From: Escherichia coli O127:H6 str. E2348/69
GTDB taxonomy: Bacteria; Pseudomonadota; Gammaproteobacteria; Enterobacterales; Enterobacteriaceae
Assembly: GCF_000026545.1 (NCBI RefSeq)
Contig: NC_011601.1
Direction: 5' to 3' (one strand)
Length of the DNA stretch: 64,000 nucleotides
The position numbers are program-made. Position 1 is the stretch's first letter; the number at the start of each line of letters is the position of its first letter. Below are positions 24,001 through 30,000 of this stretch, one piece after another.

Positions 24001-27000
24001 TATCTGATGCTGGGATTGCCCATCCCGGCAGTGATGGAGGTAGCCAGTAAAATCCTGTTCCATCCTTCAGTTTTGCCCTGTGCCACCCCTGCTTTTTATC
24101 GAGAGATGTTTGTGCGAAACCTTCCTCAAGGTTATACAGATACCGACCGATTCCCCACTGAACGGCAGCGCGCTTCATTGCACCGGAACGACCGCCTTTG
24201 ACAGCTTCTACCTGCGTGTTTTCAGCAGCATCCCATTTGGTTACCCATTCGGAATCAATCCTGATTGATATGCCGCATTCAACGCCTCCGTTGTTGGGAA
24301 TATCGCGGTATTCATTGCGCCATCCTGCTTTGCCGCAAACATCGTCCAGACGTTTCATGATTGCCCGGTTCGTGACATAAGCCAGCACCATAGCCCACAC
24401 CTTGCCATCGCGTGTTTTACCGCTTTGCTGTATTCGCCATTCGATATCTTCAGGGCTGAATGGCTCATCGAATTTGTTCAAATCCATAATTCACCTCAGA
24501 ATGGACACGGCCCAAGGAAATAACGCTGATTTAATACTTCGACTCGGGACAAATTAAGGCATACCCGCATTCCTTCGCGGTCGCCATTATGGCGATACCA
24601 GAGAGCTTTCTGCGTGTACATGCGTCTCTGTAACTTGCTCTCCTTCACTGTGGTTGCAAGTGACATGAATATCTCCTTCGTTACCGATTAATTCTTTCAT
24701 CTGACGAATGAATTCTTCGTCTGAGCAGTTATCTGTAAAACTCATTTCCTGCGATACCACGGAAGGTTGATAGCTGATTTCATCGCTTTATTTGCTTCAA
24801 GCCACATTTTGGAATCACCAATAAATCTGGCTATTACTGCTTTGTTCTGTGCAGCACGAAGCATCTGGTGATTGATGGCTATTTCATTGCGCATAACGCC
24901 TCCAGTTGTTTCTTTGCTGCTCTGATTAATTGTTTAACTCGGCGTGATAATTCAGATTCGTGCGGGTAGAAAGCGGACATGACGCCGCTACCCGCGAGCT
25001 GAAAGTGCATCATGGGTAACTCCTTATATTTGATTGCATAACGAAAACGCCTCGAGTGAAGCGTTATTGGTATGCGGTAAAGCCGCACTCAGGCGGCCTT
25101 GATAGTCATATCATCTGAATCAAATATTCCTGATGTATCGATATCGGTAATTCTTATTCCTTCACTACCATCCATTGGAGGCCATCCTTCCTGACCATTT
25201 CCATCATCCCAGTCGAACTCACAAACAACACCATATGCATTTAAGTCTTTCGAAATTGCTATAAGCAGAGCATGTTGCGCCAGCATGATTAATACAGCAT
25301 TTAATACAGAGCCGTGTTTATTGAGTCGGTATTCAGAGTCTGACCAGAAATTATTAATCTGGTGAAGTTTTTCCTCTGTCATTACGTCATGGTCGATTTC
25401 AATTTCTATTGATGCTTTCCAGTCGTAATCAATGATGTATTTTTTGATGTTTGACATCTATTCATATCCTCATAGATAAAAAATCGCCCTCACATTAGAG
25501 GGCAAAGAAGATTTCCAATAATCAGAACAAGTCGGCTCCTGTTTAGTTACGAGCGACATTGCTCCGTGTATTCACTCGTTGGAATGAATACACAGTGCTT
25601 ATTCGTACTAATAAAACACCCAATTTTCTGTTTCTTGGTTGTGTCCAAAGTTATATTCAATATCTGGTGTTGATGTATCAATATTCTTCATCCCATCAAC
25701 AAGAGTTGATACAACAGCCAAATCTTGTTTGATTCTCATCAAATGGTATTTCTTTCGGCGCAATAAACTTTCAATGGCAAGTTTCTTCGTCGGGAATGCA
25801 AAAGATCTTTCTGCATTTTTTGCTACTTTCTTAATTGCATATCTATTTCTCCTTTGTTTCCATTCCTGTAACCACTGATTTGGTGCTGGTTTAAAATTAA
25901 CAATCCAATGCGCAGGAACCAACCATGCATAATGCTCTGTCTGATGAAAAGCTATATATTGAAGTGCGAATATTTTGATCCCATCTTCTTCAACTGTCGC
26001 CTGGAATCTCCAGAAAACAGGCATTCCATCATGTTCAGTTTCTGATTCAGGAAAAGGTACGCTCCATGATTTTGTCATATCTCACCTCAAATAAGTGGTT
26101 TGCTGCCTAATTTCATTTTCTGGCGACCAACACAAGTCATCTTGCTGTCAGTTGTTTGGATTTCCGGTAGCCTGCCGCGTAAAGAGCTACGTTCGGAAGA
26201 CAAGTTGAGCCTTCATATTTTCTGGTCAACGTTGTCAGTGTTATTACTTCTGCTCTCATTGCTGGTTTGCGCTTGCATTGCAAGACCACTCGAGAGGGGG
26301 TTGGTCTGTGTAGCTTGTCGGAGCTAATCGCCTCCTGACTTTGCAGGTTTGCGCGACGAGCTCTACGACGAGAAGCTGAGGTGCCTTTAAATTCTGTTTT
26401 TCTGGACATAGATTCCTCCCGAATAAACTTTGGTGATGCAATCTCGAAGCTCCTCCTGAGACGGTTGCTTCGGCATTGCATCCCACAGCTCATGTGGTTG
26501 GGTGATCTGGCTTTTCAGCCACGTAGTCGAGAGTTCGACGTTGTTTAAAGAGCCTGCCAGTCTGTTCCGTTTGGCTTCCAGCGTCCTGCTGACGGTTAAA
26601 TAGTACGATATGTACTTTATTGGGTCAATACGATTTGTTATAAAATAGGGTGATTTTTTATAACACTTTGTATTTAATAGTGTTGTTTTTTAGCGTGGGT
26701 GTATCGCCTCGGCGATGTAAGGAGAGATCAGAATTGCGTGGTTTAGTGAGTTGTATCTATTTATTTTTCAATAAATACATTTGGTTATGTGTCTTTAGGT
26801 GGGGGCGTGAGGCAAAGAAAACCCGGCGCTGAGGCCGGGGTATGCATTTATGGTTTTTTTTGGTCGTGCTTTGCTAGGGCTTTATGAGTTTTCTTAATGC
26901 TGCTTCTAACTTTCTGAATTTTTTCTTGGGAAAGTTTTATGTTTTCAGGGGCTGTTCCAGTGTTAGAAATCATTACATTGCGAACAGATCTCCCTACGGT

Positions 27001-30000
27001 CTCAGCAGCATTCTCTAGTTGAGACTGTCCCTTCAGGTTCTGGTTTCTGATTCTTGCTTCTGTCTGTGTAATTCTGAATATATTGGCCGCGAGCTCTTCG
27101 CTTCCCATGAAGTCAAGCATCGTTCCATCTTTTTTAGTTAGGCCTTTTCGAGCTTTCAACTGTGAGAGATTCATATTGTACATCCCACGGTAGCCCGCAT
27201 TTTGAAATAGACCATAGTCGACTACTCCGTGTTTATGGGCTACATGACTGAGAGTTTTCTCTCTAGATGTAATCTCGCCACGCAAATAAACTCGATTAAC
27301 TGCGTCATGGTTATGATATGTAGTGTGTATTTCTGCTGCGAGCCCAGCAAAATAAGCTTGTGCATTTGCAACTTTTTGATTGCTGATGTCACCATTCATT
27401 ACAATCAGATAACAAGCGAAACGAGTTAATTTAAAGTCATTTTTCGCATTTTCTGAAGGCATCTGGATGAAGTTATCGTATACAGGGATATCGAGGCTCA
27501 CACATACAGATGTAGCTTTGTTAATGGCTTTCAATATCTGATCCATGCCATTATATCCAAGCATCATCGCTAAATCAGATGCAAACCAATAGGTAACACC
27601 GTTTTCTCTAGCGAAATCATCAAATGTTAACTGTGATGTGTCATCGAAAACAGTAATTTGCCTACTCATATCACACCCGAACTTACTCATCGATTTTCCC
27701 TTATATTAATATAATGTGGATAGTTTGTCGCCAACTCGCTAAAGTTATTCATTATGAGGTTTGCCATCCATCACCCAAACGTCTCTTCAGGCCACTGACT
27801 AGCGATAACTTTCCCCACAACGGAACAACTCTCATTGCATGGGATCATTGGGTATTGTGGATTTAGTGGCTGTAGAAACACCTGACCGCTATCCCTGATC
27901 AGTTTCTTGAAGGTAAATTCATCACCACCAAGTCTGGCTATGCAGAAATCGCCGGGCTCAACAGCTTGCTCTGGGTCAACCAGAATTAACATCCCGTCAG
28001 GAAAACTAGGTTTGGAACCTGTTGGGGCGGTCATTGAGTTACCTTCAACCTCAAGCCAGAATGCAGAGTCACTGGCTTTTTTGGTTGTGCTTACCAATCT
28101 CTCCGCATCGCCTTTGGTAAAGGTTCTGAGTTCTGGAGAGAACATCCCAGCCTGAACATGAGAAAAAACAGGGTACTCATATTGTTTTTTAACTGGGGCC
28201 GATGAGTATTCGCCAACAGGTGAAAATGTCCCGTCGTGGTTGAATGATATGTTATCAATACCAAGGTATTTAAACACCACACCAATATCACTAAGAGATG
28301 GATGACGAGATCCGCGCAACCAGTGTCCAATCCCACCCTGCGTCATACCTAGCTCTTCGGCTAACTTCTCTTGAGTTATGCCGAGCTCTTTCATTCTGGA
28401 TCTAGCCAGTTCATACCATTTCATTTTCATGTCCTTATTATTACGCTCTGTATTGCAACCATCCATGCACAATGTGTATTTTTGCTTGCATTCAAAAAGT
28501 ACATATTGTATTTTTTCTTCATGGTTACTATGGAGGGCATATGAGCAACCTACGAAAATATCGAGAGTCACTGAATATCTCTCAAACAACACTTGCTAAG
28601 GCAGTTGGATGCACACAGGGAGCTATCGGACATTGGGAATCTGGTCGTCGCTTCCCAGACCTTAAAACATGCCGTGCTCTTGTTGCGTGTCTAAACAAGT
28701 TAGGCGCAAAAGTAAGTCTTGATGACGTGTTCCCGCCGGAGCACAAAGCCGCTTAATAAGCGGAGCCGCTCTTTGTAACAACGGACATTCGTCCTACGTC
28801 GCTGAAAAGCGAGCCCCAAGATATCTGACCAACTAAGGCCATATGCGTTTCCACGCATACCTTTCAACTAACTATTCACTATTGGAAATCTTAAGAAATG
28901 GAACAAACAAGTTACAGCAAACTATCACAGCGTGACGTTGATCGCGCAGAAACAGATTTACTCATCAACCTGTCAACGCTTACCCAGCGTGGTCTGGCAA
29001 AGATGATTGGCTGTCATGAATCGAAGATAAGCAGAACGGACTGGCGGTTTATTGCTTCGGTCTTGTGTGCTTTCGGAATGGCATCAGACATCAGTCCAAT
29101 TAGCAGGGCTTTTAAGTATGCGCTTGATGGAATCACAAAGAAAAAACGCCCGGCGGCAACCGAGCGTTCTGAACAAATCCAGATGGAGTTCTGAGGTCAT
29201 TACTGGATCTATCAACAGGAGTCATTATGACAAATACAGCAAAAATACTCAACTTCGGCAGAGGTAACTTTGCCGGACAGGAGCGTAATGTGGCAGATCT
29301 CGATGATGGTTACGCCAGACTATCAAATATGCTGCTTGAGGCTTATTCAGGCGCAGATCTGACCAAGCGACAGTTTAAAGTGCTGCTTGCCATTCTGCGT
29401 AAAACCTATGGGTGGAATAAACCAATGGACAGAATCACCGATTCTCAACTTAGCGAGATTACAAAGTTACCCGTCAAACGGTGCAATGAAGCCAAGTTAG
29501 AACTCGTCAGAATGAATATTATCAAGCAGCAAGGCGGCATGTTTGGACCAAATAAAAACATCTCAGAATGGTGTATCCCTCAAAACGAGGGAAAATCCCC
29601 TAAAACGAGGGATAAAACATCCCTCAAATTGGGGGATTGCTATCCCTCAAAACAGGGGGACACAAAAGACACTATTACAAAAGAAAAAAGAAAAGATTAT
29701 TCGTCCGAGAATTCTGGCGAATCCTCTGACCAGCCAGAAAACGATCTTTCTGTGGTTAAACCGGATGCTGCAATTCAGAGCGGCAGCAAGTGGGGAACAG
29801 CAGAAGACCTGACCGCCGCAGAGTGGATGTTTGACATGGTGAAGACCATCGCGCCATCAGCCAGAAAACCGAATTTTGCTGGGTGGGCTAACGATATCCG
29901 CCTGATGCGTGAACGTGACGGACGTAACCACCGCGATATGTGTGTGCTTTTCCGCTGGGCCTGCCAGGACAACTTCTGGTCCGGTAACGTGCTGAGTCCG

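Follow-up and report, generated by a model that had tools for sequence, protein, structure and literature searches.

The interval between cI and N in the prophage that adjoins torS in EPEC E2348/69 houses a discrete one-gene cassette (a 'moron') that is swapped as a unit between prophages, and the protein encoded in this cassette belongs, as judged from its sequence, to the DinD family as broadly defined. We tentatively propose, at somewhat below an even chance, that this DinD-like gene is a moron of the prophage immunity operon and that its product is a DNA-structure-binding protein of the lysogen that excludes competing phages. Expression in the lysogen, binding to DNA and action against incoming phages are together the function that we infer as the most likely. 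The window analyzed here is the whole stretch of 64,000 nucleotides of NC_011601.1 that contains the immunity region, and the features of this region are listed in Table 1.

In the first-pass annotation, a 280-aa ORF was placed directly downstream of cI on the same strand, in the position of rexAB and followed by a strong terminator, and all of these statements are borne out by the sequence. The interval given there, 26811-27770, extends from the terminator through the last base before the cI stop codon. The gene order, N - PL - terminator - ORF - cI - cro, is identical to that of lambda, except that rexAB are found in lambda where the DinD-like ORF stands. The terminator comprises a stem of six GC pairs (CCCGGC/GCCGGG, 26839-26822) succeeded by a T-run, TTTTCTTT. 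The PL-like promoter is TTGACC-17-TACTAT (26628-26600), accompanied by an operator-like inverted repeat at 26627-26674. The cI product matched PHROG 4 ('transcriptional repressor') with an E-value of 1e-62, and a start at MKMKWYE (28430) fits better to the operator region than the start annotated by PGAP. The spacer of 80 bp separates the stop codon of cI from the DinD-like ORF on the same strand, and the Shine-Dalgarno-like AAGGG lies 7 nt before the ATG.

Table 1. Features of the immunity region surrounding the DinD-like gene (positions in the window).
Feature	Position	Strand	Remarks
N antiterminator gene	26137..26409	-	annotated in E2348/69; far border of the cI-N slot
PL-like promoter and operator-like inverted repeat	26600..26674	-	points away from the cassette, towards N
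Intrinsic terminator closing the immunity operon	26811..26840	-	hairpin 26822-26839 and T-tail
DinD-like ORF	26848..27690	-	ATG start; 280 aa and stop
Exchangeable cassette segment	26861..27768	-	occupied by unrelated genes in phages that share cI and PL
cI-ORF spacer	27691..27770	-	80 bp; AAGGG ribosome-binding site 27698-27702
cI repressor	27771..28466	-	HTH and S24 peptidase (LexA-family); PGAP start 28466
cro	28541..28756	+	divergent from cI; defines the OR/PRM region

The borders of the cassette were apparent from the comparison with phages 2B8, 2G7b, ev017 and Stx2-1717, in which the homology to the E2348/69 prophage ends at 26839-26860 and restarts at 27769-27773. The slot in the phages with the same cI is filled with an NYN-domain gene, a DUF1828 pair (bearing a weak match to PDC-M24) or hypothetical genes. 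The cI-N interval is a recognised diversity hotspot and the home of rexAB and bstA (PMC8585504). The terminator is kept in the phages of the same immunity with other cassettes, as well as in the prophages of other immunity with the DinD-like gene; in >800 E. coli genomes, the match was confined to the terminator end of the query (~50 bp). Homologues of the DinD-like protein (52-92% identity) are encoded behind a repressor gene in prophages of Enterobacteriaceae, Yersinia, Providencia, Pasteurella and Microbulbifer. Among the 80 best loci in IMG/VR, which are the closest relatives and constitute a partly redundant set, 68 are preceded on the same strand by a cI-like gene, mostly at a distance of 57-260 bp. 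The repressors that precede the relatives of the DinD-like protein (47-100% identity) fall into at least 18 clusters at 50% identity.

The DinD-like gene is under strong purifying selection, with pN of 0.026-0.21 against a saturated pS of 0.69-0.86, and this contradicts the view that the gene is an inert passenger, which decays or serves no function and is merely carried along in a recombination hotspot. The synteny kept across several gammaproteobacterial families is equally contradictory to this view, and the ORF is intact, with 35 positions being invariant across 46 diverse homologues, among them R90, R137, Y167, Y171, D193, E199, R206 and R237. A passenger without function would agree with the rarity of the gene, which was found in full in 9 of the 5426 complete E. 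coli genomes, but we regard this explanation as very hard to believe.

The translation of the ORF contains both of the motifs from which a DinD affiliation was initially suspected, LTRFACYLIVMNGD and LDFMGSEELAANIFRITQTE. The protein matched the NCBIfam DinD model NF008573 with an E-value of 1.4e-58 (residues 22-278 against model positions 12-286 of 288) and K-12 DinD in BLASTP with an E-value of 9e-44 (33% identity over 258 aa). In addition, PHROG 8036 was matched with an E-value of 3e-147, and the nearest models in AlphaFold-DB are all annotated as DinD. Thus, the profile and BLASTP searches confirmed the membership of a broadly defined DinD family, and no extra domain fused to the protein was found in the Pfam search or the AF2 model. 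As the score against NF008573 (198.6 bits) is under the curated equivalog cutoff of 242 bits, the prophage protein is paralogous rather than orthologous to chromosomal DinD. K-12 DinD (PcsA; NF008573 / PRK11525) is homologous to the prophage protein over the full length, and the two share the layout of Bro-N and a helical bundle together with the invariant motifs FQNxGYxGxY and LDxMGxxELAANxFRxTQTE. On the other hand, chromosomal dinD resides at the yicC-yicG locus, whereas the DinD-like gene is prophage-borne.

In the AF2 model (pLDDT 91.5), the Bro-N winged-helix domain forms the N-terminal part (aa ~23-120) and is followed by a long linker helix and, at the C-terminus, by a helical bundle, in which most of the 35 invariant positions are located. 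Pfam Bro-N was detected at aa 29-110 with an E-value of 6e-8. This domain, the PGAP product name 'BRO family protein' (WP_000032717.1) and the label 'putative phage transcriptional regulator' given to a homologue in a pan-genome study of Pasteurella (PMC10986470) would agree with a regulator or antirepressor, of which Bro-N targets a specific DNA site or the repressor of another phage, as in Bro-N/KilA-N antirepressors, and alters the expression of the host or a co-resident prophage. Nevertheless, Bro-N is joined to an ANT or KilAC domain in the Bro-N/KilAC antirepressors, and neither domain was matched by the DinD-like protein in the Pfam search, in which Bro-N was the sole hit. A regulator would also sit uneasily with the concentration of the invariant residues in the C-terminal bundle, and an antirepressor made together with cI is paradoxical unless aimed at other phages. 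Altogether, we find a regulatory role improbable.

Neither a promoter-like nor a terminator-like site was found in the 80-bp spacer by a simple scan, by which a weak internal promoter could be missed. The RNA structure of the spacer was below shuffled controls (z = +2.1). We rejected both a promoter specific to the DinD-like gene and an internal terminator, as neither was found in the spacer and its RNA is unstructured. The most conserved part of the spacer is an AT-rich stretch at -21 to -8, and the conservation with the cassettes of other prophages is restricted to the last ~8-29 nt. With neither a promoter nor a terminator recognised between cI and the DinD-like gene, the two are probably transcribed together, with PRM serving as the promoter in the lysogen and PRE during the establishment of lysogeny.

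No LexA box (CTGT-N8-ACAG, up to one mismatch) was detected in 27691-27770. The only nearby site with a single mismatch falls inside the ORF, and the counts of such sites across the window are at chance level. As a positive control, the perfect LexA box of K-12 dinD, CTGTATATAAATACAG, was recovered 45 bp upstream of the gene. In view of the absence of a LexA box, seen against this control, we rejected an SOS regulation of the DinD-like gene. Chromosomal dinD is LexA-repressed and damage-inducible, whereas the DinD-like gene lacks a LexA box and is presumably expressed with cI. The transcription of the cassette would then end once cI is cleaved, which is the opposite of the logic of LexA-repressed chromosomal dinD.

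DinI-like SOS modulators are common as prophage morons, and co-transcription with a RecA-cleavable S24 repressor would suit a modulator of RecA. The DinD-like protein may be conceived as a prophage-stability factor, which removes RecA from duplex DNA or damps it in the manner of DinD and lowers spontaneous induction or recombination between the many related lambdoid prophages of EPEC/EHEC. The homology to DinD counts for this explanation, as E. coli DinD reportedly inhibits both the strand exchange mediated by RecA and postsynaptic filaments (Uranga 2011, as cited in PMC4129442 and PMC4849656). However, the inhibition or disassembly of postsynaptic RecA filaments is a biochemical property of E. 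coli DinD, and this activity may not be conserved at 33% identity and with a score under the equivalog cutoff. Furthermore, the unrelated NYN and DUF1828 genes in the slot of same-immunity phages suggest interchangeable conflict genes rather than a helper of the repressor, and a stability factor leaves the embedding of the family in restriction-modification (RM) loci, described below, unexplained. We consider this role unlikely.

The only clear solved structural relative of the DinD-like protein is DdrC of Deinococcus radiodurans, and the fold of a winged-helix N-terminal domain and a C-terminal helical bundle is common to the two proteins. The global TM-score between DdrC and the model is just 0.36-0.47, because the orientation of the domains differs. 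The profile of the DinD-like protein had no match among the PDB sequences at E <= 10, and DdrC is linked to it by fold only. DdrC, described as damage-induced and restricted to Deinococcus, is a dimer with affinity for nicks and breaks, by which nicked DNA is compacted and breaks are stabilised (PMC11347143, PMC9303277). The dimeric binding of nicks and double-strand breaks is a feature of DdrC, and the DinD-like protein, likened to DdrC by its predicted fold, may recognise similar structures. Such a likeness, together with the inclusion of chromosomal DinD in the SOS regulon, could be read as a lysogenic conversion for DNA-damage tolerance, in which the protein binds and bridges nicks or breaks or compacts the nucleoid as DdrC does and aids the survival of the lysogen under genotoxic stress. 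Nonetheless, if the gene depends on cI and PRM, it is off exactly when damage triggers the cleavage of cI, and no LexA box is present. As damage tolerance also does not predict that the gene should be so tightly linked to the repressor slot in 18 immunity types, we judge this role quite unlikely.

The proposal of phage exclusion is in line with the match of the DinD-like protein to PADLOC PDC-S13 (PDLC04919), with an E-value of 2.1e-86 (residues 17-279 against model positions 7-280 of 281). A type I HsdS model of PADLOC (717 aa) was also matched by the DinD module, at the N-terminus of the model. The 145 PDCs are phage defence candidates drawn from genes that lie inside RM type I, BREX or DISARM loci (10.1101/2024.01.29.577857). 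PDC-S13 was defined by such 'guilt by embedding', whereas the E2348/69 copy is in a prophage immunity operon. A CDS with a DinD domain within a type I RM locus was reported independently (PMC9881135). No embedding in type I RM loci was found in three sampled distant homologues, of which the contexts were phage or housekeeping; thus, the link to RM is based on the PADLOC models and PMC9881135. The DinD family is also found in non-mobile chromosomal contexts, and tblastn detected relatives in the large genomes of Campylobacter phages. These occurrences imply that the fold is not intrinsically a defence fold. A full-text search of the literature found no paper naming 'PDC-S13' and none on the function of a DinD-like/Bro-N phage protein, including under defence terms, in keeping with the first-pass annotation, to which no characterisation of such a gene was known. 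An exclusion function expressed in the lysogen, raised there as a candidate, is plausible and now better supported by the swappable cassette in a hotspot, the match to PDC-S13 and the linkage to repressors of many immunity types.

RexAB of lambda is encoded by two genes, including one for a membrane component, and is expressed from PRM in the lysogen. The DinD-like gene has the position in the operon and the inferred expression from PRM in common with rexA/rexB, but its product is a single soluble protein and is not homologous to RexA or RexB. Likewise, bstA of the Salmonella prophage BTP1 is located after cI and before N with its own terminator, follows many different repressors, and encodes a single protein of ~300 aa, in which a viral DNA-binding domain at the N-terminus (KilA-N, as against Bro-N in the DinD-like protein) is combined with a helical C-terminal region (PMC8585504). 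The homology to BstA was rejected, as hhalign gave a probability of 0.2 and no PADLOC BstA model was matched at E <= 1. In an alignment of 18 cassette sequences, we found no aba-like conserved DNA element beyond the coding constraint, the ribosome-binding-site region and the terminator, though aba, the self-immunity element at the 5' end of bstA, is variant-specific and its conservation is not required. That no such element was detected counts against phage exclusion, in which the lytic growth of the prophage itself would have to be spared.

In the mechanism that we envisage, the DinD-like protein would be present in the lysogen to recognise DNA structures and would bind the nicked, ended or recombinase-coated intermediates of the replicating DNA of an incoming phage. 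This binding could block recombination-dependent or late replication and packaging, by which competing phages would be excluded. The exclusion would be functionally analogous to that by RexAB or BstA, with homology to neither. The step that stops the phage is speculative, because the DinD-like protein shows no recognisable motif of a nuclease, an NTPase or another effector. A bolder version, which we think rather doubtful, is that the repressor-linked DinD clade represents a new single-gene anti-phage system, a DdrC-type sensor-effector that recognises lesions or intermediates and is switched on by the repressor operon instead of LexA. As a corollary, DdrC and DinD would form one widespread superfamily (>8000 clusters at 50% identity) recruited repeatedly into the phage-host conflict, i.e. 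into the immunity regions of prophages, into satellites and into type I RM loci, with fusions to HsdS among the latter.

Ever since dinD was discovered as an SOS gene, the role of its product has been obscure. The locus described here is a natural experiment, in which the DinD family has been shifted from the control of LexA to that of a prophage repressor, in the slot of rexAB (lambda) and bstA (BTP1). If the DinD-like protein tunes RecA, the prophage would encode a brake on its induction. If phage exclusion is true, the candidate family PDC-S13 of PADLOC would be validated and the reference EPEC strain would gain a defence gene, and chromosomal DinD and DdrC of Deinococcus would be suggested to act on the same type of DNA structure.

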